The translations under genes were made by a program, and so were the position numbers. This document shows, piece by piece, positions 2,609 to 40,166 of a stretch of 62,811 bases of DNA (its first letter is position 1; every line of letters starts with the position of its first letter). Source of the stretch: a virus; the IMG/VR virus record IMGVR_UViG_3300047175_000146, positions 1 through 62,811 of that record; one strand, given 5' to 3'. The notes beneath the pieces are model-generated. The model ran no database searches. It was not told where the DNA came from and was given only the letters and a program-made list of their open reading frames with translations.

Positions 2609-3454
2609 ATGTCTCGTCGTTTTTGGCGGGAAAATCATGGTAGAGCACGTCGTGTTCGCGGCACCGTGAGCAGCGCTCCGCCGTTTGCGTTCGGCTCCGG
2701 TGCTTTCGGCGTAAACCCGTTCGGACAAGCCCAACTGATCACGAGCAACGTCGCCTTTCTGTCGCCCTCCATCGCCGAAGTGTTGAGCGAGTGTTTCGAG
2801 CGGGCCGGTATCGCGGCCGCGTCGCCGGGCAACGATCACATTGATTCAGCCATCCGCTCCATGAAGCTCATGCTCAATTCCGAGTGGCTCACGTTAGGGA
2901 TGCGCACGTGGCAGTTCCAACTGCTGAACCTGACCACCAACGTCACGGTCGGAGCGACCGTGGTGCTGCCCCCGGGCGTGCTGACCGTCTCCGATGCGGT
3001 GTTGCGTCGCGACGGGCGCGATACGCCGATCAACCCCATGAGCCGCGATGAGTATCTGGAGATCCCGGACAAGACCCAGACCGGGCGCCCCGATCGGTAT
3101 CTGATCGACAAGCAGTACAATCAGACCGTCCTGACCATGTGGCGGTCGCCCGAGAACAACACCGACCAGATCTTCTACTGGGCGATGTGCAACACGGCGA
3201 TCCCGACCGAGGATCTGTCCCAAGGGCTGCAGATGCGCCCGGAGATCCTCGAGGCTTTCCATGCGGGCCTCGCGGCCAAACTGGCACTCAAGTTCAACGC
3301 GCAGCGCTACGAGACGCTGCAGGCGTATTACCGCGGCGCAGATCCCAACCCGCGCAACATCGGCGGCGTGCTCGCCCTGGCGCTCGACGCGAATCGCGAT
3401 TGGGGCGATGTAAGATTCACTTTCCACCGCCGGCGCCGTTCTGGCCGCTGGTAA
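2609..3454 (+). CDS. Virion structural protein, possibly tail tubular protein A / adaptor-like
   Basis: ORF 2597..3454 with first ATG at 2609. It sits in the tail block. The layout 'IDSAIRSMKLMLNSEWLTLGMRTWQF ... SRDEYLEIPDKTQTGRPDRYLID ... EILEAFHAGLAAKLALKF' is reminiscent of podovirus gp11-type proteins. This is judged by eye only. Confidence 0.4.
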   Translation: MSRRFWRENHGRARRVRGTVSSAPPFAFGSGAFGVNPFGQAQLITSNVAFLSPSIAEVLSECFERAGIAAASPGNDHIDSAIRSMKLMLNSEWLTLGMRTWQFQLLNLTTNVTVGATVVLPPGVLTVSDAVLRRDGRDTPINPMSRDEYLEIPDKTQTGRPDRYLIDKQYNQTVLTMWRSPENNTDQIFYWAMCNTAIPTEDLSQGLQMRPEILEAFHAGLAAKLALKFNAQRYETLQAYYRGADPNPRNIGGVLALALDANRDWGDVRFTFHRRRRSGRW

Positions 3455-3471
3455 ACCAGCAGGAGCAAACC

Positions 3472-18370: not shown

Positions 18371-21300
18371 ATGGCCGCCGGCTGGATAGCGCAGGGTCCG
18401 CCTCAACCCGCGGGTCCCGCCAACGATGCGCCCGTGGGCAATGCGCCGCCCGGCAATACAATCGCCGGCGATTGGCAATTGGTGGGTCAGCCCGAGCCCT
18501 TGGATCCCACCGCGATCAAACCGGTCGCCAAGAACGCCATCGAGGACACGCGCTCGATCTACCAGCAGGCGCGGGATTTTGTCTTTGGCCACGATCCAGA
18601 CGCCGATGACACCGATCAGGTGCGAAAGCCGGGCGTGCTGCCCTCTATCGTGGCCGGCGCGCAAGACTTGGATCGCGGCACCAAGGACTTTGCCACCGCC
18701 GGCCCTGATTGGTCGACATTGGCCAAAGCCTACCCGCATATTCTGGCCGCCCAGGCCGAGCGGGTCGGTGCCGGTGTCCAAGAGGCGACGGGTGCGAGCC
18801 AGACCCAAAGCGCCGAGCTGCAAATCGCCGCGCTCAACGTACTGCCGCAGGCCGCGGCGCGCCTGAAATCCCAAGTGCCGGGCCAATCCGGCATCGTGCC
18901 GGTGGAACAACTCGCGCAAGATCCTCTGGTCGAGAAGACCGCCCGGGGTTTGGGGCTCGACCCGGTCGTGTTTGCGTCGCAATGGTCGCAGTACGCCGGC
19001 ATGAGTCCGGAGAAGCAGGCCGATGCCATGGCCGACGCTCAAGCCACATTGGCCGACGGTGCCAAGAACAAAGAGTTGGGCGCCAACTCGCGCTATCAGG
19101 CATGGGCGGACGAGAGGGCGTGGGAACCCTCCGACCTGCTCAATGGCAAGCTCGACCCCTGGACGTTGAAAAGCGTCGCCTTCAACACCGCGACCGCCTT
19201 GCCGGCAGTGGTGGCGACCGCCGGGGCGACTCTGGCCGGTAGCGCGGCGGGCGGCCCTGCCGGCGGTCTGATTGCCGGCGCCACGGTCGGCAGCGCGATT
19301 TTTGGTCCTCAAGGCTACGCCAACGCCAAGGACGCCATAGACGCACAGTCGAGCCGGCTGCTCGAAAAGGCGGATGAGCTTGATGCGGCGGCGCCGATCG
19401 GAAGCCGCCGCGCTTTGAATCCGGCCGCCGCTCTGTTACGCCAACAGGCGGCCGACCTGCAAGCCAGTTCCGACAAGATCGCGATGACCGCCGGCATGCT
19501 GACCGCCGTGGCGTCGGCCGCCGGTGGTGCGCCGCTATCCGCAGTGCTCGCGCGCGCGCCCGGTGGCCAAGCCATCCTCAACCGCATTGTCGGATCAGCC
19601 ATCGCTCAAACCGCCGGCGGCCGCGTGGCCGGCACGGCCATCGCCAACGGCGCCGGCGCCGTGGTGCAGGCCAGCCTGCAAAAGGCGATCGACGTCGGCA
19701 TCGTCCATGAGGATCAGTCGTTGGCCGATGCGCTCAAGGACATCGCCGCCGCAGGCGTCATCGGCGTCACCACCGCGCTTCCCATTGCCGGTGCGCACGA
19801 AATGCTCATTGGCGGCCCACGGGCACAAGCAAAGCGGGACTTCGACACCGAGCAGTTTGCCGCGCAGGCACAACGCATGGCGGCGGGCGGTGCGCTCGGC
19901 GGTGAGCCATCGGCTGCATCGCAGGAAGACTATCCGGGCTACCGCTGGGATCCAAACATCCCCAACGGTACCGATCGCAATGGCAATGCGGTTTACGGCC
20001 GCTTTGTGCCGACCGGGACGAATGGCGCGAACGCTGAGACGACAGCGGCTTTAACTGGACCGCAACAGCCAACCGGTGAGACGAATGCCGATGGCGGTGA
20101 ACCGCTGGGGGGTGCTGGTGGCGGCGGCGCGGCCGGTGCCAGGCAGGCCTATACCGACAAGATGACGGCGCTCAACACGGCCGCCGCCAAGGCTGAAAAG
20201 CGTTCCGACATCACGCTGCAGCCGGAGGAAGAAGGCTGGTCCATCCACGTCAACGGCGAACCGGTGGCCACGTTCGACACGGCCGCCAATGCGCGCGCGG
20301 CGTTGGCGAGTGCCAGAAAACTGGTCGGTACCGCGCCCAAAGTGAACCCGTCGTCGAGCGCATCTGCCGCAACGGCAGAGGCCGATACCGACCAAGGCCA
20401 GTCTGGCGCGCCTCAAGCGCAGACAGAATTCCCACAAAATCCCCCCTCCGAAGACGCCGCCGGCACTAACGCGCCCGCCAAACCCACCGCGGCCGCCCCT
20501 GCGTCGGGCGATGCGAATTTGGACGACCTCGAGCACACGCAGCAGATCGATGTACAGCCCGAGACCGATCGGCGCCAGGACACCGATTTGCGCGCGCGCT
20601 TCGATGCCATGACGCCGGAGCAGAAGTTCGCGGCCGCGTATGCGCACGAGCTGACCGGCATTCCAAACCGGCGCGCGTACGTCGATTCGCCCAAGAAGCC
20701 GGCGCAGGTGTCGATAGACGTCGACTCGCTCAAATGGGTCAACGACAACATGGGGCATCCGTCCGGCGATGCCTACTTAAAGGCGGTCGCCACCGCGCTG
20801 CATCAGGCGTCCGGCGGCAACGCCTATCACATCTCCGGCGATGAGTTCGTGGTGCAAGCCGACAGTCCTGAGCACGCGCAAGCCATCATGGCGGCCGCCA
20901 AGGCTCGCCTCGCCGATGCGACGCTGACTTTCGAGCACCCGGACGGGCGCACCATCACCTTGAAAGGGATAGGAGTCTCGCATGGCACAGGCCAATCTCT
21001 TGAAGAAGCCGATTCCCGGCTCGCTCAAAACAAAGCAGACCGGGAGCAATCCGGCCTCCGCGCAGGTCGCGGCAGCGAACCGCCAGGAACAAGTCGCGGG
21101 TCTGCTCAAGCAGGGTTACCAGCTGAAGAGCGTGGGCCTGCCACCGGCGGCGGACTATCAGGTGGCCGGCAGACCGAAGTCCTAGGCCAGCGCGTCCAAG
21201 CGCCAGCGGTCCCCACCCAGGCACAAGCCGCCGCCGGCAATTACTTCAAACCGACGGTCGAATGGCACGGCCTGCCGATCAAGATCGAAAACGAGCCGGG

Positions 21301-24300
21301 TTCGCAGCGCTCCTTCACCTATCCCAACGGCAATCCGGGGCAACGCACCATGCTCGCCCACTACGGCTATTTTCCCGGCCGTGAAGGCGCTGATGGCGAT
21401 GGCGTCGATGTGTATATCGGGCCTGCCAAGAGCGCGGACAGCGGCAAGGCCTATGTCATCGATCAGTTGCGGCCAGAAGGTGGCGCGTTCGATGAGCACA
21501 AGGTCGTGGTAGGCGTCGGCAGTGCCAAGCAGGCCAAAGAACTCTACCTCAAGCACTACCAGGAAGGTTGGCAGGGGTTCGGCGCGATCACGGCCATGGA
21601 TCACGAGGCCTTGGCCGACTGGCTCGCGCACGGCGATCTAACCCAGCCGGTCGCCTGGAAACCAGTCATCGAGCGTGGCCAGGGGCCCGATGCCCGCTAC
21701 GACTCCATTCTCGAATATCTCGCCCGCCACAAGCGGGGTCTCGACAGCACGGAGGCCGAAGCTCAGGGGATCGATCCGGCCGACATGAAGCTCGCCGCGG
21801 CGCACGTCGGGATACGGCGCGCTTTCCGCAAGGGCGGCATGGGCTTCGATCAGGCTGCTGAACATCTCCATGAGGAAGGGTATCCGGTCACGGATGAGCA
21901 CGGCAACTACTCGCCCAATGTGCTGCTCGAGCGCCTGGCGGACGAGCTCGCCGGCATCAAGCATTTCTCGAGCCATAACCAGACGCACACCGAGGAACTG
22001 GCGCGCGCCGAGCACGAGCGCATCGTCAACGTGCAGGCGGAACTCTCGCAGCGGCAGATCGACCGCTTGAGCGCCGAGCAGATCGAGGCACGCATGGCCG
22101 CGCTCGAAGCGGAGCAGGAGCGGCTTGCGATCCAAGCCGAACGGACCGCAGGCGACGCCGAGGACATGAATTCCATCCCGTTCTCCAAGCGTCAGCGGGA
22201 CCTTTTCGGCGAGCAAAATCACGTCAAGAACGAGATCAAGAAGCTTCAGATCGCCAAAGACAAGAAACGCAACAGCGGCCAGGAATCTCTCGAGACCGGG
22301 CGCCCGGATGACCTGTTCAGCCAGGCACGCCAGCAGATGGACCTGACCGACATCAAGGAGCCACCGACCGAGTACGCGCTCGCCGACAAGGCGAGCAAAA
22401 GGCCGATCAGCAACCAGTTGGATATTTTTGCCCCACGCGCGGTGACGCCGGCGGCCGCGGCGGTCAAGAAATCGGCCGCCATCTTGAGCCAGAAAACCAA
22501 ACTGGTGACGGTCGGCACGTTCCGCTCAGGACACGACAAAATAACCACTTGGCAGCAAGCCGCGCACGTGCTCGCGCCGCTGCGCAAAGGATCGCAGGAA
22601 ACCATGGCGGTTCTGGTCCTCGACAAGAACGGCAAACCGCTGTCGGTGATCCGCGGCGGCATGGGCACGATCAATGGCGCGAGCGTCGAGTACTGGTCAT
22701 TGAGCGGCGCGGTGGCTTCGATCCCAGGCGCTGATTCGGTGTATTTGGTTCACAACCATCCGTCCGGTTCGCTGGTTCAAGGAGAGGCCGACAACACGGC
22801 GACCGCCAAACTGACCGATCTGCTCGATGCCATGGGGCTCAAAACGCACGGCATGATCGTGCTGACGCCGAATGGCGCTAAAGCGTCCTTCGTTCCCTCC
22901 GATCCCAACCTGTTGGGTCACCAAGGTATACCGGGCGAGGTGGCGCCGGGCGGTAAGACGCGCGCGTTGGTGCCGGTTGCCGAACGGCGCTACGCCGCCG
23001 GCAACCGGCAAACAGGGCTGCCAGAAGGGGTGATTGGAACGCAATTGGCCAATCCCCGTGGCACGCGCAAAGTCGTCGAAACCGTCGCGCAGCACACACC
23101 TTCCGGTGTGCTGCTGCTCAACAATCATTATCGCGTCGTGGGTTTGTTGCCGATGGCCGACGCCGCCAAAGCCGCGTTGCGCTTGGGTTCCGATAACACA
23201 GGAGCCTGGGATCTGCTGCGCGCGCTGCACGAAGCCAACGCCAACAACATCATTCCGTATGGTGTTTCCGAAGACGCAGTCAAAAACGTGGTGCGTTTTG
23301 CGCGCGCCGCGGCCCTGAATGCGCCGGATGCCTTCGTCAAAAACGCGACCGGCGCGTGGAACAGCATGCAGGAGTCCGGCTTCGCTCCCGCCGGCGACAC
23401 CTTCAAGCGCACCAAATCGCAGAGCGGCGTCGGCATGCCGGTGGCGGACGTCAAAGCCATCGTCGACAAATTGCTCGGGCATTTTCGCAACAACCCCACC
23501 GATGTGGTGGTGGTGCAAAGCGCCGCGGACCTCGACAAGATCCCTGAGCTCGCCGGGCGCACCGATCCGGACGCGATCGGCCTCTTGGATCCGCGCACCG
23601 GCAAGATCTACCTGGTCGCGGATGAGATGCACAGTCCCGAGCACGTGGCGCTTACCCTGGCGCACGAGTACGTCGTGCACTACGGCCTGCGGGCGCAGTT
23701 TGACGACCGTCAAAACGCCGAGTATCAGGCAATACTTTCCGGAGTATTCAAAGCCATGCCCGCCGAGGTGCGTGCCCGGTTCGAGCAGGCCTTCCCGGGC
23801 CAGGATTTTGCATCCTCGACCTTGAACCAACGGCTGGTGGCGGCGGAGGAAGCGCTGGCTTACGCCGAGGAGCGGTATGCCAACGGCGCGGACATCTCAA
23901 AGCCCGTCCAAGGATTGCTCGAGCGACTGTACACGCTGCTGCGCGATTGGCTGCGCAACAAGTTGGGGTTGGCGCCTAAATTCGACAGCCTGTTCGTCCG
24001 CCGCACGCTCGATGACCTGCGCACGTTTTTGAAGAACTCCCGCAATCGTCCTGAATCGCAGCGCAGTGATGAAGCGCCGGCGGCCGCCAAGCCCCAAGAC
24101 ACGTTCTATTCCGCGCTCGCGCGCGCGGTGGATGCGGCAAAGCGGGACAAAGGCACCGGGCCTGAGTGGGAAGCCACGTTGCGCAACATGACGGGCGTCA
24201 AGGCCGAAGAGATGCAATGGCTGGGATTGAAGGATTGGCTTGCGGGCCGCGGCCGCGTGACCAAGCAGGAAGTTGCCGAGTATGTACACGCTCATCGGGT

Positions 24301-27300
24301 GCAACTGGGTGAAGTGAGGTATGGCGGTAACGACCAGCGCGACGTGTACCTCAACGAGATCCGCTCGCACGGGTTTGATGTCACTGAAGAGTCCGGCGGG
24401 CATCCGAGATTGATTTTTCCGGAAGATTGGGAAGAGGAAGACCCACCGCCGGCCGTCACGCGCGCGTATCACGAACTCGAAGATTTGATGGCGGGCGGCG
24501 ATCCACCGCAGTACCAGGAATGGGCGACGCCGGGCGGGCAGAACTACCGCGAGATGCTCTTTACTTTGCAGAGCAAGCCTTACGGCGTGGATTTGCGCAA
24601 ATCGATCTTCGATAAGTACGAGCCGCGCATCAGACAGATGTACGACAAAGCGATGGACATCTCGCGCACCGACACGCAGGGCGACCTTGATCGTGCCGCC
24701 GCGGCGCGCGAGGTGGATCGTTTGAGAGATGAACGCAATATCGAGGCGGACCGAATCTTCACCGTGCCGGAGCCGTACATTTCGCCGCATTGGGAAGTCG
24801 ACAATGTGGTGGCGCATGCGCGCGCCGATGACCGCTTCGGTCCGCACGGCGAGCGCGTCTATCACATCCACGAGATCCAATCCGATTGGCATCAAGCGGG
24901 TCGAAAGCATGGTTACGTCAGCGGTTTCGATTTAGCCAGACTCAAGGCGGCCTCCGCAGGCGATCCAAGCAACAGGTTGAATCCTAACGCCCCGCCCGAC
25001 GCGCCGTTCAAAACCAGTTGGCCCGAGCTCGCCTTCAAGCACATGCTGCGCGAGGCGGTCGAGCGCGGCTATGACGCCATCTCTTGGGACACCGGTTCGA
25101 CCAACGCCGGGCGCTACAACATGCAGCGGGTGGCAGACAAGATCAGCGTCGCCATCACGCCCAACAAGGAACCGCCGGAATATCACGTGCGCGCCACCAA
25201 GGGTGGCACCGTCGTGCACCAATCCTCTGATTTGAACGAGGAGCAACTGGCGGAACTGTTGGGCAAAGACATGGCGCAAAAGGCGATCAGCCGCTTGGGC
25301 GTCGCCAACGCCGTGTCGACCGATTTTTTGGGCGATGACTTGAAAATCGGCGGCGCGGGCATGCGCGCGTTCTACGACGGCATCCTGCCCAAAAAGGTCA
25401 ACGCGCTGGTCAAGAAGTGGGGTGCGTCGGTCGAAGCGGCCACGCTACCGAGCAAACCGGGGGGTCGCGCGACGATCGAACAGATCGACGGCGGCCATTG
25501 GCGCGTCACCGACCGCGACGGCCGGCATTTCGAATTCGATGATTTCCGCGACGCGCGCGAGTTTCTGGCCGCGGAATCCAAACACAATGCCGCCGGGCCC
25601 GAGGGCGGCCTGCCCGTGCACCTGGTGCGCATCACGCCGGCCATGCGCGATTCGGTGCTCGAAGGTTTGCCGATGTTCAAGAAAAAGGGCAAGGGCAAAG
25701 GTGGTGCGCCGCCGGCCCCTCGAGCTCCTGGACCGATCCGCAAAGGCTATGAAGTCGCTCGCACCGTCGCGAGCTCGATCCCCAACAACGAATTCGTAAT
25801 GGCGTTTCGCCGCATCTTGGCGCCGGCCGGCGTCTCCGAGTTCTCCAGGTCCGCGGCGCTCCTCACGCGCGAGAACTTGGGCGAACTCGCCCAGGCCAAA
25901 ACCCAAGCGCTACACGACCTCGAAAGCTACGCCAAAGCCTTCGACCAGTTGCCCATTCCCGACCGCTATGACTTCATTGACGCCATGGAAACCGGCCAAT
26001 CGCAGCCGCATGCGCCCCTGCAGCGAGCCGCCGACACCATCCGCGGCATGCTCGATGACACGCGCGAGGAGGTGCAGGCTCTCGGCGTCGGGGCGCTCGA
26101 AAACTGGATCGAGAACTACTTCCCGCACATCTGGCAGGATCAAAAGGCGGCATCGAAAGTGTTCCGGCAGATCTTCGGCCGCCGGCCGCTCAAAGGGCCG
26201 GCATCGTTCTTGAAGCAGCGCACCATTCCGACCACGCGCGAGGGTTTGGAGAAGGGACTGCAGCCGATCTCGAGCAACCCTTTGATTCTCGCTTACGCCA
26301 AGATCGTCGAGATGAAGCGTTTCATTGCCGGCGTCAAGCTCATGCAGAAATTCAAGGATGAAGGCCTGGCCGTATTCTTGCCGGCGCACAAGATGATGCC
26401 GGAAGGCTGGGCCGAGATCGAAGATGCGGTTGGCCGGGTGCTGCAATGGAGTGAGGCGGAAGGCGGCTTCGTGATCCGCGGCAAGTACATCATGCCGCAG
26501 GATGCCGCGCGCGTGATCAACAACCACTTGAGCGCATCGGCGCTGGCGAACTTTTTGCCGGCGCAGCTGTTCCGGGTCGCCAGCAACGCCGTCAACGCGC
26601 TGCAGCTTGGCTTCTCAGGGTTTCACTTGGGGTTCACGACCTTGGACGCCATCGTTTCCAAGAACGCGCTCGGCATCGAACGATTGTTGCACGGTGAACC
26701 GGTCAGGGCGGCCGCAACGTTCCTCGAGGCCAACGGCGTGATCACGGGTCCCATCATGAACCTGGCGCGCGGTTACAAACTGCTGAAAGCGTATACCAAC
26801 ATCTCGGGGGCGACGCCGGAAATGCGTCAACTGGTCGAGGCGCTGCAGGCCGGCGGCGGGCGCGTGTCCATGGACATGTCGTTCGCCGCGGCACGTGGGA
26901 TTTCGCCGTTCAAGGGCACCGGTTTTGCAACGCTCGCGGGAGAGGTCAAAGGGGCGCTGACACTGCCGTCGGGACGCATGGCCGAGCTCGGCAAGGTCGT
27001 CGGCGGTTTCCCGCGCGAATATGCGACGCGCCTGTGGCGGGATTTGCAGGCCATGGTCCACGAGATGCAGTGGCCGATCCTGACCGTGCCGCTCGAGATC
27101 GCCGGGCGCATCACGCGCGCATCGACGTCGGTGATCATGGAGCACATCGTGCCGATGCAAAAGCTCGGCGTGTTTTCGGACCTCGCCAGCGACTGGCTGC
27201 GCCGCAACCCGCAAGCCGATCCGGTGGCCATGCACGAGGCCATGCAGCGCATCTGGGATTCGGTCGACAACCGCCTGGGCGAAATGGTCTACGACAACGT

Positions 27301-28396
27301 GTTCTGGAACCGCACCTTCAAGGACGTGGCGCACATGATGGTGCGCGCGGTGGGGTGGAACTTGGGCACCGTCCGCGAGCTCGGGGGCGCGGCCATCGAC
27401 GTCGTCAAACTGCTCGACTACATGGCGCGCGGCGCGCCACCCGAGCCTGCGGGTACAGGCCTCACCAAAACGGCGCAGGCGCGCATGGACTACGAAGCGT
27501 CCAAATCCACCCTGACGCGCATCGCCGAGAAGGCCGGCCATCGCATCACATACACCCTGGCCCTGATCGCCACCACGATGCTGCTCGGCGCCATTGCGAC
27601 CAAGCTCATGAGCGGCCAGGGTCCTCAAGAGATCAAGGATTATTTCTTCCCGTGGACGGGGCGCAAAACCAAGTACGGCACCAAGGAACGCATGTCGATG
27701 CCGACCTACACCAAGGATTTGTATGAGTACGGCACCATGCCTGTGCAAACGCTGATCAACAAGGCCAACCCCATTTTTGGGATCATGCATTCCATTTATG
27801 CCAACGAGGACTTCTACGGCAACCCCATCCGCCATTCGGATGCGGATTTCTGGACCCAGATGAAGGAGGGCGCCTCGTACGCGGCCCGCGAGACGCTGCC
27901 ATTTTCCTACCAGGGCGGCAAGCAGTACTTGAGCGCGCGCAACCAGGAGTTGGGCGATGCGAGCGGCGATCTGAAACGTCAAGTGCTGACCATCGCGCCG
28001 TACGCCGGCTTCGGTCCCGCACCGGCGCGCATCACCTCACCCGACCAGATGGAGCGCTATCAGCAGGAGGAGGAAGAGCGCGGTTGGGTGCGCGGCCTGC
28101 AACGCCAGTACAAGGCGGCGCTCGAGCGCCACGATGAGCCTGAAATAAAGCGCCTGCGGGCCGAGCTCGCCGCGGCCAAGCACAAGGCCAAGCAGACGCA
28201 GGGTGCGATCAAACAGGACCGTTCCAAAGCGCGCGAACAGGCTGACAAAATCGGTGCACTCATCCAAGGCAAATCGCGCGATCAAGCCGTCGCGGCACTC
28301 AAGGACGCCGGCCTGCCGGCTTTTGCGCAATTGTGGAATGCGATGTCCGATAATTTGCGGCCGCGGGTGGCTGAAAGACTAGGAGCCTATGCGTGA
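18371..28396 (+). CDS. Giant (3,341 aa) polyvalent virion/ejection protein
   Basis: Uninterrupted 10,026-nt ORF. Motifs are readable for GGDEF, a pyrophosphatase-like barrel, RadC/JAB (HNHPSG), zincin HExxH, an 'EIQSDWHQ' polyvalent-associated block, and a C-terminal membrane/coiled-coil core. It sits between internal-virion-type genes and the lysis cassette. Confidence 0.85.
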   Translation: MAAGWIAQGPPQPAGPANDAPVGNAPPGNTIAGDWQLVGQPEPLDPTAIKPVAKNAIEDTRSIYQQARDFVFGHDPDADDTDQVRKPGVLPSIVAGAQDLDRGTKDFATAGPDWSTLAKAYPHILAAQAERVGAGVQEATGASQTQSAELQIAALNVLPQAAARLKSQVPGQSGIVPVEQLAQDPLVEKTARGLGLDPVVFASQWSQYAGMSPEKQADAMADAQATLADGAKNKELGANSRYQAWADERAWEPSDLLNGKLDPWTLKSVAFNTATALPAVVATAGATLAGSAAGGPAGGLIAGATVGSAIFGPQGYANAKDAIDAQSSRLLEKADELDAAAPIGSRRALNPAAALLRQQAADLQASSDKIAMTAGMLTAVASAAGGAPLSAVLARAPGGQAILNRIVGSAIAQTAGGRVAGTAIANGAGAVVQASLQKAIDVGIVHEDQSLADALKDIAAAGVIGVTTALPIAGAHEMLIGGPRAQAKRDFDTEQFAAQAQRMAAGGALGGEPSAASQEDYPGYRWDPNIPNGTDRNGNAVYGRFVPTGTNGANAETTAALTGPQQPTGETNADGGEPLGGAGGGGAAGARQAYTDKMTALNTAAAKAEKRSDITLQPEEEGWSIHVNGEPVATFDTAANARAALASARKLVGTAPKVNPSSSASAATAEADTDQGQSGAPQAQTEFPQNPPSEDAAGTNAPAKPTAAAPASGDANLDDLEHTQQIDVQPETDRRQDTDLRARFDAMTPEQKFAAAYAHELTGIPNRRAYVDSPKKPAQVSIDVDSLKWVNDNMGHPSGDAYLKAVATALHQASGGNAYHISGDEFVVQADSPEHAQAIMAAAKARLADATLTFEHPDGRTITLKGIGVSHGTGQSLEEADSRLAQNKADREQSGLRAGRGSEPPGTSRGSAQAGLPAEERGPATGGGLSGGRQTEVLGQRVQAPAVPTQAQAAAGNYFKPTVEWHGLPIKIENEPGSQRSFTYPNGNPGQRTMLAHYGYFPGREGADGDGVDVYIGPAKSADSGKAYVIDQLRPEGGAFDEHKVVVGVGSAKQAKELYLKHYQEGWQGFGAITAMDHEALADWLAHGDLTQPVAWKPVIERGQGPDARYDSILEYLARHKRGLDSTEAEAQGIDPADMKLAAAHVGIRRAFRKGGMGFDQAAEHLHEEGYPVTDEHGNYSPNVLLERLADELAGIKHFSSHNQTHTEELARAEHERIVNVQAELSQRQIDRLSAEQIEARMAALEAEQERLAIQAERTAGDAEDMNSIPFSKRQRDLFGEQNHVKNEIKKLQIAKDKKRNSGQESLETGRPDDLFSQARQQMDLTDIKEPPTEYALADKASKRPISNQLDIFAPRAVTPAAAAVKKSAAILSQKTKLVTVGTFRSGHDKITTWQQAAHVLAPLRKGSQETMAVLVLDKNGKPLSVIRGGMGTINGASVEYWSLSGAVASIPGADSVYLVHNHPSGSLVQGEADNTATAKLTDLLDAMGLKTHGMIVLTPNGAKASFVPSDPNLLGHQGIPGEVAPGGKTRALVPVAERRYAAGNRQTGLPEGVIGTQLANPRGTRKVVETVAQHTPSGVLLLNNHYRVVGLLPMADAAKAALRLGSDNTGAWDLLRALHEANANNIIPYGVSEDAVKNVVRFARAAALNAPDAFVKNATGAWNSMQESGFAPAGDTFKRTKSQSGVGMPVADVKAIVDKLLGHFRNNPTDVVVVQSAADLDKIPELAGRTDPDAIGLLDPRTGKIYLVADEMHSPEHVALTLAHEYVVHYGLRAQFDDRQNAEYQAILSGVFKAMPAEVRARFEQAFPGQDFASSTLNQRLVAAEEALAYAEERYANGADISKPVQGLLERLYTLLRDWLRNKLGLAPKFDSLFVRRTLDDLRTFLKNSRNRPESQRSDEAPAAAKPQDTFYSALARAVDAAKRDKGTGPEWEATLRNMTGVKAEEMQWLGLKDWLAGRGRVTKQEVAEYVHAHRVQLGEVRYGGNDQRDVYLNEIRSHGFDVTEESGGHPRLIFPEDWEEEDPPPAVTRAYHELEDLMAGGDPPQYQEWATPGGQNYREMLFTLQSKPYGVDLRKSIFDKYEPRIRQMYDKAMDISRTDTQGDLDRAAAAREVDRLRDERNIEADRIFTVPEPYISPHWEVDNVVAHARADDRFGPHGERVYHIHEIQSDWHQAGRKHGYVSGFDLARLKAASAGDPSNRLNPNAPPDAPFKTSWPELAFKHMLREAVERGYDAISWDTGSTNAGRYNMQRVADKISVAITPNKEPPEYHVRATKGGTVVHQSSDLNEEQLAELLGKDMAQKAISRLGVANAVSTDFLGDDLKIGGAGMRAFYDGILPKKVNALVKKWGASVEAATLPSKPGGRATIEQIDGGHWRVTDRDGRHFEFDDFRDAREFLAAESKHNAAGPEGGLPVHLVRITPAMRDSVLEGLPMFKKKGKGKGGAPPAPRAPGPIRKGYEVARTVASSIPNNEFVMAFRRILAPAGVSEFSRSAALLTRENLGELAQAKTQALHDLESYAKAFDQLPIPDRYDFIDAMETGQSQPHAPLQRAADTIRGMLDDTREEVQALGVGALENWIENYFPHIWQDQKAASKVFRQIFGRRPLKGPASFLKQRTIPTTREGLEKGLQPISSNPLILAYAKIVEMKRFIAGVKLMQKFKDEGLAVFLPAHKMMPEGWAEIEDAVGRVLQWSEAEGGFVIRGKYIMPQDAARVINNHLSASALANFLPAQLFRVASNAVNALQLGFSGFHLGFTTLDAIVSKNALGIERLLHGEPVRAAATFLEANGVITGPIMNLARGYKLLKAYTNISGATPEMRQLVEALQAGGGRVSMDMSFAAARGISPFKGTGFATLAGEVKGALTLPSGRMAELGKVVGGFPREYATRLWRDLQAMVHEMQWPILTVPLEIAGRITRASTSVIMEHIVPMQKLGVFSDLASDWLRRNPQADPVAMHEAMQRIWDSVDNRLGEMVYDNVFWNRTFKDVAHMMVRAVGWNLGTVRELGGAAIDVVKLLDYMARGAPPEPAGTGLTKTAQARMDYEASKSTLTRIAEKAGHRITYTLALIATTMLLGAIATKLMSGQGPQEIKDYFFPWTGRKTKYGTKERMSMPTYTKDLYEYGTMPVQTLINKANPIFGIMHSIYANEDFYGNPIRHSDADFWTQMKEGASYAARETLPFSYQGGKQYLSARNQELGDASGDLKRQVLTIAPYAGFGPAPARITSPDQMERYQQEEEERGWVRGLQRQYKAALERHDEPEIKRLRAELAAAKHKAKQTQGAIKQDRSKAREQADKIGALIQGKSRDQAVAALKDAGLPAFAQLWNAMSDNLRPRVAERLGAYA
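20630..21060 (+). other. GGDEF (diguanylate-cyclase-type) domain, active-site variant SGDEF, no RxxD I-site
   Basis: The sequence reads 'HELTGIPNRRAY...QVSIDVDSLKWVNDNMGHPSGDAYLKAVATAL...AYHISGDEFVVQ...GIGVSHGTG.SLEEADSRLAQNK'. SGDEF is at 20834..20848. The residues 5-9 upstream are ASGG, not RxxD. Confidence 0.75.
21235..21650 (+). other. Inorganic-pyrophosphatase-like domain (tentative)
   Basis: 'GADGDGVDVYIG' resembles the PPase D-x-D-x-x-D signature, followed by 'FDEHKVVVGV' and 'AKELYLKHY'. Confidence 0.35.
22530..22890 (+). other. RadC-like JAB/MPN domain
   Basis: 'ETMAVLVLDKNGKPLSVIRGGMGTINGASV...VYLVHNHPSGSLVQGEADNTATAKL'. HNHPSG is at 22751..22768. A second, degenerate JAB-like stretch ('VLLLNNHYRVVGLLPM') follows. 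Confidence 0.8.
23560..23760 (+). other. Zincin-like metallopeptidase motif region (HExxH)
   Basis: 'IYLVADEMHSPEHVALTLAHEYVVHYGL'. HEYVVH is at 23663..23680. Confidence 0.5.
24101..25680 (+). other. Large-polyvalent-protein-associated block
   Basis: 'TFYSALARAV...GPEWEATLRNMTGVKAEEMQWLGLKDWL', 'RVYHIHEIQSDWHQAGRKHGY' (24863..24895), 'GGAGMRAFYDGILPKKVNALVKKWG' and 'LPMFKKKGKG' recall blocks seen in giant phage/conjugative-element proteins. This is from memory only. Confidence 0.45.
25740..28396 (+). other. C-terminal ejection-core region with TM helix and coiled coil
   Basis: 'GRRPLKGPASFLKQRTIPT' (26176..26222); hydrophobic helix 'ITYTLALIATTMLLGAIATKLM' (about 27545..27610); charged coiled coil 'ERYQQEEEERGWVRGLQRQYKAALERHDEPEIKRLRAELAAAKHKAKQ'. 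Confidence 0.5.
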
Positions 28397-35879: not shown

Positions 35880-36818
35880 TCATTCGCATAAGCCGTAAAC
35901 CGAACTGCAACCGCTTGCAGGTTCGAGCCTTATAAAGTCTTGCTGGCGACCACCGTGCGCGGTTTCTGCCCATCGGATTCTCGCGTCGATATTGAGCCGG
36001 TTGAAAATCTGCTCGTGCGTCTCGTCTTCCTCACTGCTGTCGCAGAAAAAGGTAGTCCAGCCCCGCTTAGCCGCCATGCAGATCAGTTGTTCCCATTCGC
36101 GGATTCGGTCAACGTGCGCAGGGCAGCGTTTCGAGATTTCAAGCAGTTCGTTCTTATTGGCGTTAATGCAGGGCATACACCCGACGCGACCCATGCCCAT
36201 CGCGTACAGCGGATTCAGTTTCACACCGCGCCCGGTCACAAAGTCCACCGTCTGCTGGGCGGTCCAAGACGCTATCGGATGCTCGATCATCCAGCCCTCG
36301 GCAGCGCGTTCTGAATCCTTAGCGTCCTTTCGGTTCTGGCTCTCATCGCGCCGGATGCCACGCCAGCTCGATAAGTCCCACCCCTCGGCCAGCCGATCCA
36401 TCATGTAGGCGTCGAGCGGGCGTCGCTTTAGCTCCTGGGTGCAGAACTGCGCTTTGCGACTCGGAAAGCGGCCTTTCCAAAGGCATAGGTCTAAAAACGG
36501 ATTGCCGGTCGGATGCAGAACGCTCAGGGCACGCGCCACGATCTCAGGCGGCACACCTTTGGCTGGCCACTTCGTTTCGACGTACAGCCGCTTACCGGCA
36601 ATCTGGCGCGTGAAGTCTGCCTTCACGGTGATGATTTCACCGAACACCGTGGGCATGTAGTTGTTGACGTACTCAAGCGTCAGTTCATGCTCGTTGCCAG
36701 TATCGGCAAAAATGAACCGGCAGTTCTCCCGGCCCACGCGATCCATAGCAAGGAGCGCAGTCGCGGTGCTGTCTTTGCCGCCCGAAACAGAGACGATGGC
36801 GAGGGGTTTGCCTTTCAC
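35880..36818 (-). CDS. PP-loop ATPase of the PAPS-reductase/DndC-like family
   Basis: 'LAIVSVSGGKDSTATALLAM' (SGGKDS at 36768..36785) is the PP-loop. Also 'GIRRDESQNR', plus Cys motifs 'GCMPC' and C-terminal 'GCSSVYGLCE'. Confidence 0.75.
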   Translation of the reverse strand: MKGKPLAIVSVSGGKDSTATALLAMDRVGRENCRFIFADTGNEHELTLEYVNNYMPTVFGEIITVKADFTRQIAGKRLYVETKWPAKGVPPEIVARALSVLHPTGNPFLDLCLWKGRFPSRKAQFCTQELKRRPLDAYMMDRLAEGWDLSSWRGIRRDESQNRKDAKDSERAAEGWMIEHPIASWTAQQTVDFVTGRGVKLNPLYAMGMGRVGCMPCINANKNELLEISKRCPAHVDRIREWEQLICMAAKRGWTTFFCDSSEEDETHEQIFNRLNIDARIRWAETAHGGRQQDFIRLEPASGCSSVYGLCE

Positions 36819-36848: not shown

Positions 36849-37445
36849 TCAGACACCCAATTCATGTTGCGGATGCTCCCCTTTGATGACGGCCAAACAA
36901 TCTTCCAACATGTGATCGAACCGGCTCATGCCGCTGCCGTCGATCGAGTCAGCCAAGCCGATCCAATTGCGCAGCCGCAAGGCGGTATTGACGCGGCCGA
37001 CGTGGACCCATTTGCCCATCATCTTGGCGGCCTTCGCCACGGCCAGGGCTTGCGGGCTTGATTTGAACGGCGTGCTGCCGCCGATAAACACGCAGCGGAA
37101 GCGCTCCCAAGGTATCGGCCAATTCTCTATACCGTCCTGAATGACCAGCGCAAGCGGAACGTCTGGCATCTTGGGCGCGAAGTAATCGAACAGTTCTAGC
37201 GTCCTAGCGGCGTCGCCTACGATATCGGGACAGCAGGCCCACAGCGGGCAGTCGCCTTCGGTTTCAGTCAGCAGCCGTTCCCATGTGGCGCGCTCAAAGG
37301 TCTTGAAGCAGCCGTTGTCCAGGCCATAAGGAACCGGCGCCCGCGAATAGGCGGTGAGCGGCGTTCGCAGTTGCCAGAACTCAAAGCCGTATCGCTCGGT
37401 ATATTCAGCGATCTTGGCCGGCGAGCAGTCGAGCATGATTTTCAC
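36849..37445 (-). CDS. TGT-superfamily / DpdA-like DNA transglycosylase candidate (tentative)
   Basis: Ordered motifs parallel TGT TIM-barrel landmarks: 'GLDNGCFK' (cf. DSGGFQ), 'LALVIQDG' (cf. IVQGG), 'VFIGGST' (cf. aiGGl), 'VHVGRV' (cf. lmGvG), 'ADSIDGSGMSR' (cf. DmFDcv.PTR). The protein is 198 aa. Confidence 0.45.
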   Translation of the reverse strand: MKIMLDCSPAKIAEYTERYGFEFWQLRTPLTAYSRAPVPYGLDNGCFKTFERATWERLLTETEGDCPLWACCPDIVGDAARTLELFDYFAPKMPDVPLALVIQDGIENWPIPWERFRCVFIGGSTPFKSSPQALAVAKAAKMMGKWVHVGRVNTALRLRNWIGLADSIDGSGMSRFDHMLEDCLAVIKGEHPQHELGV

Positions 37446-37474
37446 CCGTCAACCATGCACATTCATGTCACCCC

Positions 37475-37666
37475 TCAGGCGAACAGATCCTGCTGCGGCT
37501 GTTCCTGCTTTTGCCGGTATTTGTGACCTGGCAACTGGTGGAACTTACGCCAAAAGCAGCGCGCTGCAGCTTCGCAATCTGCAGGCTGAACACAATGCGG
37601 CGACCACTCCTTGCCGGTATAGACGCCATCCTCACGGACTTCGGTGCACGGTTTCAGGGAAGGCAT
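37475..37666 (-). CDS. Small Cys-containing hypothetical protein
   Basis: 63-aa ORF overlapping the end of the repeat-protein gene, in operon context. Confidence 0.35.
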   Translation of the reverse strand: MPSLKPCTEVREDGVYTGKEWSPHCVQPADCEAAARCFWRKFHQLPGHKYRQKQEQPQQDLFA

Positions 37667-38391
37667 TCGCCGATGATCTCGCGCTGCAAGGCGCCGAACT
37701 TCTCTTCATCGCCGATCGTCTCGCCGATGAGCGCCACCACCCACAGACGATCGCCCTTCCATGCCGGCGGGATCAGCGTTGCGTGCAGCGCGCCGCTCGA
37801 GCAGAGATTCAATGGTCCTTTGACGGTGTGCACCACGCCGGGCTTCGCAGGCTCAAGGCGCTGGCCATGAATTGCGGTGCCGTCTTTCTTCGAGTGCCAG
37901 AAGCAGATCCTGGCACCCAGCGCATTCAGTTCTTCAAGCCGCGCTCGCTGCGCATCGCTCCACCTCGCTGCAAAAAAAGAGATTGTCTTCGACCAATAAT
38001 AGCCGGAGCCGGAACTGTCGCCGGAGCTGTCGCCGGAGCCGTCGCCGAAGCCGGCGCCGTAGCCGAAGCCGGAGACGTAGCCGTAGCCGGAGCCGTCGCC
38101 GCAGCCGGAGCCGTCGCCGGAGACGTAGCCGTAGCCGGAGCCGTCGCCGGAGACGTAGCCGGAGGCGGAGCCGGCGCCGGAGCCGGCGCCGCAGCCGGAG
38201 CCGTCGCCGTAGCCGGAGCCGTCACCGGCACCGTCGCCGTAGCCGTCGCCGCAGCCGTAGCCGTCGCCGAAGCCGTCGCCGGAGCCGGAGCCGTCGCCGC
38301 AGCCGTAGCCGTCGCCGAAGCCGTCGCCGTAGCCGTCGCCGTAGCCGTAGCCGTCGCTCGGCGCCCATGCAGGCGCCTCGCCGTGAAGCAT
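37654..38391 (-). CDS. Acidic Gly-Asp-Tyr/Ser repeat protein with a globular C-terminal domain
   Basis: TAATG overlap start at 38391 (ORF extends to 38418). About 120 aa of (G-D-G-[YSF]-G) repeats are followed by 'YYWSKTISFFAARWSD...LCSSGALHATLIPPAWKGDRLWVVALIGE'. Confidence 0.6.
   Translation of the reverse strand: MLHGEAPAWAPSDGYGYGDGYGDGFGDGYGCGDGSGSGDGFGDGYGCGDGYGDGAGDGSGYGDGSGCGAGSGAGSASGYVSGDGSGYGYVSGDGSGCGDGSGYGYVSGFGYGAGFGDGSGDSSGDSSGSGYYWSKTISFFAARWSDAQRARLEELNALGARICFWHSKKDGTAIHGQRLEPAKPGVVHTVKGPLNLCSSGALHATLIPPAWKGDRLWVVALIGETIGDEEKFGALQREIIGECLP
38001..38358 (-). repeat. Imperfect tandem 6/18-nt coding repeat tract (gccgtagccggagccgtc-like units)
   Basis: Read directly. It produces repeat ORFs in several frames on both strands. 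Confidence 0.85.
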
Positions 38392-38684
38392 TACGACTTC
38401 CACGGCGCCTTCTCCCACGCCTCGACCGCTTCAGGCGTGCACACCGCGACACTGGTGATGTCGCGCAGTTCGAGGTCCGCCGCGGGCCCGATCCTCGATC
38501 CCGACAACGGTCCGAACTTCGCAAGGCCCAGAAAGCCTTTTTGCTGCGGCGGCCAATAGATGCAATTGCGTGCCGCGCGCAGTTTGATGATCGCGCCCTC
38601 GGTCTCCATCGCGTAGCCAAAAAACACTCCGCGATGGCTGGTCGTCACCAGCACTGCGCGTTCCTGTTGCTCTTTATTTATCAC
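38391..38684 (-). CDS. Hypothetical protein
   Basis: 97-aa ORF 'MINKEQQERAVLVTTSHRGVFFGYAMETEGAIIKLRAARNCIYWPP...' with RBS 'aggagaccgaag' before the GTG/ATG region. Confidence 0.55.
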   Translation of the reverse strand: MINKEQQERAVLVTTSHRGVFFGYAMETEGAIIKLRAARNCIYWPPQQKGFLGLAKFGPLSGSRIGPAADLELRDITSVAVCTPEAVEAWEKAPWKS

Positions 38685-38774
38685 TTCGGTCTCCTATGTT
38701 GATCAGCGTTCGGGCACGTCGCGAAATGCGATTCGACCAATAATAGCCGTAGCCGGAGCCGCACTAAACGATCA

Positions 38775-40166
38775 CTAGCCTCCCGCGGCCTGGCGCGCGA
38801 GGTAGTGGGCTTTCACGAACGCACCATACGGTGTCGGCGTACCCGAGGAGTCCGTGATCAAGATGAACGAACTGACTCCAGTCCATGCGTCCCAGGTCCA
38901 AGCAAAGTAGCTTACGCCGGGGAAGCTCGCCCCCGCTGCGCCCATCGACTGCGCAGCCCTTCCACCCGGATCCGCCCAGCCATACAAGCTCGCCGAATCG
39001 GTAGTCTGGGTGTTCTGATCGCCATACTCCGTGACCAGGATCGGGATGCCCTTGTTGAGCACCACGTTGGCGCCGGATTCGAACTTCGATCCGTTGTAAT
39101 AATGAAGGCCACCGGCGATCTGCGGCGGGTTGAGCGTGTCTTTTGCTGGGAACCAACCTGGCGGGTTATCGACGTACCCTGTCTCCGCCGATTTGTTGTT
39201 ACCAAATGTGCTGGCGTAGTTGAGGCCGTCTTGGATGATCACGTTGGTGGCGCCAGTCGCTCGAATAGCGTTCACCATTGCCTGGCAGTTGGTGTCGTAG
39301 TTGGACGACAGTTGCCCATTGACGTAGTTGTTCCAGTCGGCGGTTGTGGGCGGGTAGTTGCCCTGCGGTTCATTGAATAGCTCGAACATCACGGCCGGGT
39401 TTCCCTTGAACGTATTGGCAACTTCGGTCCAGAAGTCGAGCGAGTGCGCGCTGTCGGCCATCGCGTTCTGACCTTGAGGACAGATATCGTTACCGACGAC
39501 GACCCAGTGCAGATCCAAGATCACATACATGCCGTTGGCAACGGCGTTGGCTACCGCTGCTTTTACCGTTGCCTGGTAGACCGCCGGCGTCACCCCATTG
39601 GCAAGAGTCTGGCTGCAAAGTCCGAGCCAGTTTGCTTCGCCCAACGGCAAGCGCACGGCGTTGACTCCCCACGATTTGATCGCTGCCCAGTTGGGAGTCT
39701 GCCCGCGCCATGGGTCATTGGGGAACGGCGTGCCTTCGAGGCTCGATATGTTCACCCCTCGCAATTGGATCGGCTTTCCGCTCCCATTGACGATGTTATT
39801 ACCGACGACCTTCACACCGAAAACTGGCGGAGGCGCCGGAGTTGGTGCGGGTGCCGGGGTCGGAGTAGGCGCCGGCGCAGTGGCGAATGGCGATGTGACC
39901 TCGGTCCACTGAGAGATCACCAGTTCATAGCAGGTACCCTGAGCATTGATCTGGTAAAAGTTTCCGCCCGAGATCCCGATCGCGGCGACGCCCGCCGTGG
40001 AGAGATCCGGTGCACCGTTCATTGTCACCTGGCCCGCTGAGTTGATTCCGCGCACCACGCCATCAGCAGTCGTAATGGTCTGGTTGCTTCCAGCCTTTAC
40101 GACTGTGCCGTCTTTGGTGGGCACTACCGGGGTCCACACCCCATTGACATATAAGTTTGTAGCCAC
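38775..40166 (-). CDS. Glycoside hydrolase family 5 (cellulase-type) enzyme with N-terminal domain and Pro/Thr/Ala linker
   Basis: 'WGVNAVRLP', 'GMYVILDLHW' and 'VMFELFNEP' (NEP at 39366..39374) are GH5 landmarks. The linker is 'APAPTPTPAPAPTPAPPP'. A strong RBS AGGAGG lies 7 nt before the GTG start. No signal peptide. Confidence 0.85.
   Translation of the reverse strand: MATNLYVNGVWTPVVPTKDGTVVKAGSNQTITTADGVVRGINSAGQVTMNGAPDLSTAGVAAIGISGGNFYQINAQGTCYELVISQWTEVTSPFATAPAPTPTPAPAPTPAPPPVFGVKVVGNNIVNGSGKPIQLRGVNISSLEGTPFPNDPWRGQTPNWAAIKSWGVNAVRLPLGEANWLGLCSQTLANGVTPAVYQATVKAAVANAVANGMYVILDLHWVVVGNDICPQGQNAMADSAHSLDFWTEVANTFKGNPAVMFELFNEPQGNYPPTTADWNNYVNGQLSSNYDTNCQAMVNAIRATGATNVIIQDGLNYASTFGNNKSAETGYVDNPPGWFPAKDTLNPPQIAGGLHYYNGSKFESGANVVLNKGIPILVTEYGDQNTQTTDSASLYGWADPGGRAAQSMGAAGASFPGVSYFAWTWDAWTGVSSFILITDSSGTPTPYGAFVKAHYLARQAAGG

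Follow-up and report, generated by a model that had tools for sequence, protein, structure and literature searches.

The virus contig IMGVR_UViG_3300047175_000146 of IMG/VR, analysed here over its whole length of 62,811 nucleotides (the window), carries a minus-strand gene for an acidic Gly-X repeat protein directly downstream of a gene of the DUF6948 family. As comparison with relatives shows, the repeat tract is free in length and order and tightly held in composition, and the pairing of the two genes is close to obligatory. The DUF6948 protein has a predicted Sm/LSm fold, and with low confidence we interpret the tract as a nucleic-acid-like decoy that works with this Sm-like partner. The two-gene cassette appears to be undescribed. 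In full-text literature searches, DUF6948, DUF7666, and DUF5758 were not named in any paper, four repeat strings typical of the tract were likewise absent, and “fibroin heavy chain-like” in combination with phage returned nothing relevant. A 2025 report on LSm-like early proteins of phage T4 (PMC12152347) was the sole related publication retrieved.

The 120-residue tract is made up of 53 Gly, 20 Ser, 17 Asp, 14 Tyr, 5 Ala, 4 Phe, 4 Cys, and 3 Val residues, with no Lys or Arg, and its net charge is −17. These values bear out the claim of a previous sequence-only reading of this DNA that the gene encodes an acidic Gly/Asp/Tyr/Ser repeat. That reading also described periods of three to six residues and a regular negative charge array, neither of which was recovered. 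The protein in fact repeats every two residues, with Gly at 53 of 60 positions in one phase and never in the other, the X phase (17 Asp, 17 Ser, 14 Tyr, 4 Phe, 4 Cys, and 4 Ala). On average, one residue in 7 is Asp (one in 5.5 over the first half of the tract and one in 10 over the second), with a spacing no more regular than in 20,000 shuffles of the tract, and the aromatic residues are spaced no more evenly than at random, their gap variance equaling that of the shuffles. Since the order of Asp, Ser, and aromatic residues as a whole is indistinguishable from the shuffled order, the tract is a copolymer in which Gly-Asp, Gly-Ser, and Gly-Tyr units follow one another at random rather than a regular charge array, and we take it from its composition to be disordered. 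In the DNA, TRF reported periods of 12, 18, and 30 nt with ~80% matches and a score of up to 378, and the three longest exact direct repeats measure 41, 34, and 29 nt, their copies being spaced by 48, 48, and 30 nt, respectively. The tract is the sole one of its kind in the window, and a six-frame reading of 240 kb of control phage DNA revealed none.

Seven cultured Pectobacterium phages and Dickeya phage Setonix illustrate how quickly the tract changes. All of their Gly-X proteins begin with MSKLIKPEKYG (in Setonix, with MSKLIKPERYG) and their DUF6948 tails are 94–100% identical, with tracts of 53–89 aa that are all different except for the identical pair of phages Ymer and Abuela. A human-gut group with DUF6948 proteins 89–100% identical and a C-terminal domain 94% identical on average has tracts of 15–141 aa, of which 65 distinct versions occur among 70. 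These comparisons show a tract in which 6-nt units are rapidly gained, lost, and reshuffled, and give strong support to the expectation, raised from the window alone, that the repeats should readily expand and contract. Slippage or unequal recombination explains the variation, no search having been made for the reverse transcriptase of a diversity-generating retroelement. In one close relative (L008, 3333–3730), the C-terminal domain is 88% identical to that of the window protein and is out of frame with the tract; the break, located immediately beyond “YWSKT,” represents a natural frameshift or else an error in sequencing or assembly.

Codon use is essentially uniform within each gene, which reflects rapid unit turnover, and differs between lineages. 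Three codon sets were found: GGC/TAC/GAC/TCC, used by the window gene, Ralstonia phage NK-7, and phage Taid (the Taid locus being only 48% GC); GGG/TAC/GAC/TCC; and GGC/TAT/GAT/TCN. Because lineages use different synonymous codons for identical residues, the amino-acid pattern is what is conserved. Among ~2300 X positions in the gut-phage tracts, we counted 971 Ser, 723 Tyr, 565 Asp, and 37 Phe residues, with Ala, Asn, and Glu together accounting for 4 and the other one-mutation neighbors (His, Cys, Thr, Pro, Val, and Gly) absent. Taken across lineages, these patterns show selection acting on the tract at the protein level, and on its composition only. Among natural variants, the tract of P0135 is (Ala-X)n instead of (Gly-X)n, its X being Tyr, Asn, Asp, Phe, or Thr. 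In one lineage (loci L001–L004, L012, L013, and L017–L019), every tract Gly codon is GGG, and the resulting (GGG NNN)n has, on the coding strand and in the mRNA, the canonical G3N3 pattern that is prone to G-quadruplexes.

The frame of the repeat gene is coding, judging by its continuity with a conserved N-terminal motif and C-terminal domain in at least 24 homologues. These 24 homologues (42–76% identity over the C-terminal domain) were retrieved with the C-terminal 115 aa alone, a search that the sequence-only reading had pointed to. Nearly all of them have the N-motif, a Gly-X tract of widely differing length, “SYW,” and the conserved domain, and the N-motif occurs in IMG/VR relatives both with and without the C-terminal domain. 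The gene boundaries given by the sequence-only reading are exact for the ATG-start open reading frame (ORF) on the minus strand (table 1). An alternative GTG start at 38418 would give a protein of 254 aa, nine residues longer, and conservation is unable to settle the start codon, since the additional codons run over those for the conserved C-terminus of the upstream protein. Each of the six frames is open over the tract, and the repeat accounts for the long plus-strand ORFs there (37354..38559 and 37872..38702), which are its shadow frames. Gene callers often shorten the tract (the call for P0004 is 128 aa long, against a tract of ~130 aa in the true ORF of L002).

The upstream gene belongs to DUF6948 (PF22253; 78.3 bits against a Pfam gathering score of 27 bits, E = 4.9e-22, model positions 2–85 of 85), as do the upstream genes of NK-7 (104 bits) and Taid (107 bits). 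In the window, the stop and start codons of the two genes overlap as TAATG, implying translational coupling, and an overlapping or abutting pair is also present in L001, Taid, Ymer, and others. DUF6948 is directly upstream in the contexts of two of the homologues. A Gly-X ORF lies immediately downstream in 18 of 20 IMG/VR loci retrieved with the window's DUF6948, the exceptions being a contig that ends 11 nt past the match and a weak match. With three other, divergent DUF6948 queries, 80 of 81 informative metagenomic loci carried a Gly-X gene right after DUF6948. A Gly-X gene was also present in all 17 GenBank phage records with DUF6948, namely Ralstonia NK-7, seven Pectobacterium phages, Dickeya Setonix, Vibrio IKEMa6-1, Iodobacter PhiPLPE (two records), Chlorobiaceae CV-1-33, and four uncultured phages; tblastn against GenBank phages gave no match for the window's own DUF6948. 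Adjacency is kept even where gene order is swapped, as in MW202478. A Myxococcales protein that joins the C-terminal domain to pentapeptide repeats has no DUF6948 upstream, whereas DUF6948 is present at Bryobacterales loci with both Gly-X tract and C-terminal domain, indicating that DUF6948 tracks the Gly-X tract and not the domain. We therefore regard the pairing as close to obligatory on the gene-order evidence, and a Gly-X tract gene seems to accompany DUF6948 in every case. The sequence-only reading missed this partner gene, the strict Gly-X alternation, and the wide spread of the family. Apparent fusions of DUF6948 to the C-terminal domain (P0006, P0037, and P0129) look like deletion or frameshift read-throughs and were not used as Rosetta-stone evidence.

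The AlphaFold2 model of the DUF6948 protein (pLDDT 86.5) matched Lsm1-7, archaeal SmAP, and 3by7 in a Foldseek search of the PDB, with probability 1.0 and target TM up to 0.72. The protein is accordingly predicted to have the five-stranded bent beta-barrel of the Sm/LSm fold, a similarity at the level of fold. Predicted LSm-like folds are also known among early proteins of phage T4, with GoF, MotB.1, and Frd.2 suspected of an action on RNA (2025 report, PMC12152347). The T4 proteins differ in having no Gly-X partner gene, and their resemblance to DUF6948 is one of predicted fold.

DUF6948 is a large family of >3,400 clusters at 90% identity, many of its database entries being on contigs of 0.5–1 kb. 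Soil, water, plant pathogens, and the human gut have all yielded phages that carry the cassette, with Ralstonia, Pectobacterium/Dickeya, Vibrio, Iodobacter, and Chlorobiaceae as hosts in addition to those of the human-gut phages. Apparent prophages of soil Acidobacteriota genomes are further carriers. Together with the same C-terminal domain as in the window, the cassette is present in Bryobacterales (Acidobacteriota) genomes (L118 and L120), which suggests an acidobacterial host for the window's phage lineage. The chromosomal copy, in OZ252030.1 at 2.27 Mb, looks truncated or decayed.

The C-terminal domain was modeled by AlphaFold2 with a pLDDT of 92.8 as two helices and a beta sheet, in agreement with the suggestion that an ordinary folded domain is fused to the repeat; its length is ~115 aa and not the 125 aa first proposed. 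It carries the motif GPLxLCxxxALHATxxPxxWxGxRxWVVA, in which invariant Cys, His, Trp, and Arg residues, among others, hint at an active or binding site. Foldseek found nothing in the PDB at E < 1 and several DUF7666 proteins in BFVD (probability 1.0, query TM 0.54–0.59, rmsd 2.7–3.9 Å), which superpose at ~3 Å rmsd over 91–98 residues. On these models, the domain shares the fold of DUF7666, a group of proteins of phages and giant viruses. DUF7666 and DUF5758 domains resemble it further in being fused to repeat arrays and in having a PLxxCxxG(A/I)(L)H-type motif, but the domain differs from them in being undetected by any Pfam model: the window domain and five other bare domains matched no Pfam family at E ≤ 10, the DUF7666 HMM included. 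An hhalign comparison of the domain profile with one DUF5758 sequence aligned the PLxxCxxG motif at a probability of 1%, and we claim no homology from it. Pfam, NCBIfam, PHROGs, and PADLOC contained no family for the repeat protein or its C-terminal domain, and tblastn against GenBank phages gave no match for the domain. Matches to TrAA12 and ser_rich_anae_1 were low-complexity and below cut-offs, and were rejected together with those of a PDB sequence-profile search, which returned only Gly/Ser-rich or other low-complexity stretches, several of them in engineered fusion constructs.

A profile search of 1.84 billion representatives recovered 371 relatives of the C-terminal domain (representatives at 50% identity). 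Among the best 150 of these, 64 have an N-terminal Gly-X tract and at least 28 have C-terminal pentapeptide repeats instead of the tract. One protein, P0160, combines the C-terminal domain, pentapeptide repeats, and DUF5758; the window protein itself has no pentapeptide repeats (PF00805, tandem A(D/N)LXX). The range of architectures indicates that the domain is an optional module. The tract occurs without it in NK-7, Taid and relatives, PhiPLPE, CV-1-33, L010, and L021, and the gut phages L035–L114 attach an unrelated C-terminal domain of ~150 aa (IKTFNG...FAHGETLHEA...HWHHVLTGSC...) that belongs to no Pfam family (in L035, ORF ~2776–3471) and forms a second module of the cassette.

Table 1. 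Features of the repeat gene and its partner in the window
Feature	Coordinates	Strand	Details	Basis
Whole repeat gene, 245 aa	37654..38391	minus	ATG at 38391, stop at 37654-37656	ORF list and translation
N-terminal peptide MLHGEAPAWAP, 11 aa	38359..38391	minus	Clade motif (I/M)LRGExPxW	Alignment
Alternating (X-G)60 tract	37999..38358	minus	Residues 12-131, exactly 360 bp	TRF, composition, register, codons
Folded C-terminal domain, 114 aa	37657..37998	minus		AlphaFold2, Foldseek, alignment
Partner gene, DUF6948 protein, 97 aa	38391..38684	minus	Predicted Sm/LSm fold	Pfam, AlphaFold2, Foldseek
TAATG stop/start overlap	38389..38393	minus	DUF6948 gene to repeat gene	Read from sequence

A function set by composition, valence, and charge alone points to a multivalent polymer. 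We envisage the tract as a multivalent polyanion studded with aromatic rings, whose function would depend on composition and which would physically resemble a single-stranded nucleic acid, with Asp taking the place of phosphate and Tyr that of base. If the chain were extended, residues i and i+2 would lie ~6.5–7 Å apart, near the spacing of phosphates. Early in infection, the tract could occupy the basic, Arg-rich surfaces with which one or more host proteins bind nucleic acid, while the Sm-like protein would bind, organize, or regulate it, and the C-terminal domain, where present, might be delivered as cargo or add a second activity. Proteins with related properties exist: DNA mimics include pentapeptide repeat proteins (MfpA and Qnr, for instance), and Hfq carries, in its acidic C-terminal tail, a nucleic-acid mimic directed at the protein's own Sm ring.

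Several observations favor the decoy, among them the conservation of the gene pair and the protein-level selection on the tract. Besides the net charge of the tract and its lack of Lys and Arg, the stand-alone relatives have all three of their Lys/Arg residues in the N-peptide and none in the tract, and pentapeptide repeats replace the tract in relatives of the C-terminal domain. Outside the window, the cassette is found among early, recombination, and accessory genes, including Erf, SSB, exonucleases, Cro-like regulators, and a DNA methylase. Other observations weigh against it. No homologue has an established function, and neither PADLOC nor annotated PHROGs gave a match. We infer the binding of DUF6948 to the tract solely from gene linkage. 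Asp is randomly spaced at a density of 14% in the tract (8–17% in relatives), and classical DNA mimics are folded and more acidic. The absence of Lys and Arg may be partly mutational, as their codons are more than one step from TAC, GAC, and TCC. Finally, Tyr is kept at least as well as Asp across the family, which fits a sticker-spacer condensate equally well.

Comparison with known nucleic-acid mimics gives a similarly mixed picture. The phage and bacterial mimics T7 Ocr, ArdA, lambda Gam, MfpA/Qnr, and phiKZ Dip have a parallel in the repeat gene, an early phage gene with a net acidic product and a tract free of basic residues, but they are folded, with geometrically ordered charges, whereas the tract is presumably disordered, random in order, and 14% Asp. 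PDB profile and Foldseek searches found no sequence or fold match to known nucleic-acid mimics. The folded scaffold with phosphate-like Asp/Glu spacing that characterizes Ocr and ArdA is lacking here, and the tract is still compatible with a disordered polyanion mimic.

Three other systems come close to the cassette. The low-complexity (LC) domains of the FET family (FUS/EWS/TAF15) are likewise Gly/Ser/Tyr-rich, with many [G/S]Y[G/S] triplets and a function expected to depend on composition and not on order; the phage tract differs in its strict dipeptide alternation, absence of Gln, charge of −17 per 120 residues, Sm-like partner gene, and hypervariable length. The FUS LC domain is nearly uncharged. 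The tract thus has the high [G/S]Y[G/S] density of a FUS-like domain and lacks its near-zero net charge and evenly patterned aromatic residues. The silk fibroin heavy chain (GAGAGS/GAGAGY) has the same strict Gly-X alternation, but in the tract X is Tyr, Asp, or Ser and not Ala or Ser, the protein is an intracellular product of an early phage gene, and there is no shared ancestry; charged Asp should moreover prevent beta-sheet packing of the silk type. The Arg-Gly tails of SmB/D1/D3 and the acidic tail of Hfq also couple an Sm-fold module to a Gly-X or acidic low-complexity segment, differing from the phage cassette in that the low-complexity part of the latter is encoded by a separate, coupled gene and is acidic and aromatic instead of Arg-Gly. 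The tract therefore resembles FET LC domains, silk (Gly-X)n, and the theme of Sm proteins with dipeptide repeats, and conforms to the full definition of none of them. Membership of the silk-type, RTX, and collagen classes was rejected on periodicity and composition: the tract has a period of 2 and no GG, unlike the nonapeptide GGxGxDxUx of RTX/PE_PGRS, and its Gly is at every second, not every third, residue as in collagen.

The main competitor of the decoy is a condensate or hydrogel scaffold, in which Gly-Tyr/Phe units would act as stickers and Gly, Ser, and Asp as spacers, and an Sm-like ring would nucleate or cross-link the polymer into a phage compartment or RNA granule. We regard this as possible but rather unlikely. 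The window protein has 10 [G/S]Y[G/S] and 14 [G/S][Y/F][G/S] motifs in 120 residues, and the conservation of composition without order, the tolerance of large changes in length, and the natural substitution of Phe for Tyr in the gut phages L077, L083, and L084 (GFGSGFG, like FG repeats) are what such a scaffold would lead one to expect. The predicted fold of the partner is also suggestive, as Sm/LSm proteins form rings and nucleate ribonucleoprotein (RNP) granules in eukaryotes. A net charge of −17 over 120 residues without cations, however, should oppose self-association in the absence of counter-ions or basic partners, the aromatic residues are no more evenly spaced than at random, and ring formation and RNA binding by DUF6948 depend on a predicted fold.

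The decoy and condensate readings overlap, and a more ambitious combination of them can be formulated, which we consider speculative and less probable than either. The cassette would be a dedicated two-component system of tailed phages with many different hosts, an Sm-like ring and a hypervariable Tyr/Asp/Ser-Gly sticker-spacer polyanion together forming, within the infected cell, a nucleic-acid-mimicking coacervate or decoy that captures Arg-rich host RNA- or DNA-binding proteins. If so, the captured proteins could include RNase E, Hfq, nucleases, and defense sensors, and the assembly would be the bacterial-virus counterpart of the eukaryotic RNP granules built from Sm/LSm proteins and low-complexity domains. 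Whatever its mode of action, the association of an Sm-fold protein with a compositionally fixed, hypervariable polymer offers an unusually clean natural system for composition-only disordered proteins in bacteria and may reveal a new strategy of host takeover or anti-defense. Several carriers are cultured phages, making direct testing feasible.

It is improbable that the tract is a passive, flexible tether between an N-terminal docking peptide and a C-terminal effector domain, with neutral variability. Conserved flanks around a gut tract of freely varying length and the swapping of C-terminal domains would suit a tether, but many phages have the tract without any C-terminal domain, its composition is far tighter than a linker requires, and the partner gene follows the tract and not the domain. 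There is very little chance that the repeat acts at the DNA or RNA level, as origin iterons, a recombination hotspot, or a G-quadruplex RNA, with an incidental ORF. The uniform codons within each gene, a tract that is G+C-rich even in a 48% GC phage, the G3N3 pattern of GGG-type tracts, and the six open frames speak for such a role; the use of different synonymous codons for the same residues in different lineages, the unbroken continuity of the Gly-X frame with conserved coding flanks, and the exclusion of nearly all one-mutation residues from X speak against it.

We see an equally slight likelihood that the tract is a modification substrate (for tyrosine sulfation or cross-linking, for example) or a RiPP-like core served by the PAPS-reductase-like gene located two genes downstream. 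Its Tyr residues are flanked by Asp and Gly, and the short conserved N-peptide could serve as a leader. In every relative examined, however, that gene and its neighbor are absent beside the cassette, no conserved modifying enzyme is nearby, and the encoded protein resembles DNA-sulfur enzymes of the SspD/DndC type, not sulfotransferases. Least credible is an assembly artifact or non-expressed pseudo-ORF: the window tract length comes from a single metagenomic contig and seven contigs (L009, L013, L017, L019, L023, L024, and L026) end inside their Gly-X tracts, making the tract a recurrent short-read assembly breakpoint, but the same architecture is found in isolate phage genomes and >100 independent contigs, with tracts of similar length in L002 (~130 aa), L011 (~116 aa), and L118 (~110 aa).

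The window is a phage contig, with genes for a terminase large subunit, for virion proteins, and for an ejection protein. Downstream of the repeat gene on the minus strand are genes for a 198-aa protein (36849–37445), whose sole match is phrog_15826, and a PAPS-reductase-family protein (35880–36818) that matches PADLOC SspD (2.2e-21), BrxP, DndC, and phrog_424; together they look like a phage DNA-sulfur/PP-loop modification pair. The sequence-only reading had placed the repeat gene in one operon with this pair. No terminator is predicted between the repeat gene and the two downstream genes, but a functional tie does not hold: the phrog_15826, PAPS-reductase-like, and upstream GH5 genes are absent beside the cassette in all 27 related loci compared, so that the association with DNA modification is one of local position and not of function. 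Functional links of the cassette to any of the three genes were dropped, none being syntenic in relatives.

The repetitive tract has practical consequences, as it breaks short-read assemblies and public records carry wrong frames and names. Gene_25 of CV-1-33 (L028, MT192033) was called in a (Met-Ala)n shadow frame, the coding sequence at 1222–1794 of MW202478 (L032) is a (Met-Ala)n shadow fused to DUF6948, and the Gly-X gene of PhiPLPE (L129, 972–1208) is unannotated in the public record. Other relatives are labeled “fibroin heavy chain-like” or “lamprin,” the misannotated set including L005 and L007.

Two further genes of the window deserve mention. The GH5 gene upstream of the cassette (38775–40166, minus strand) encodes a 463-aa protein with a GH5 cellulase domain (Pfam 5.8e-32), preceded on its N-terminal side by a region of ~95 aa and a Pro/Ala/Thr linker (APAPTPTPAPAPTPAPPP), and may be a polysaccharide depolymerase. 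On the plus strand, a single ORF of 3341 aa (18371–28396) follows the virion and ejection-protein genes and encodes a putative giant virion-associated protein.

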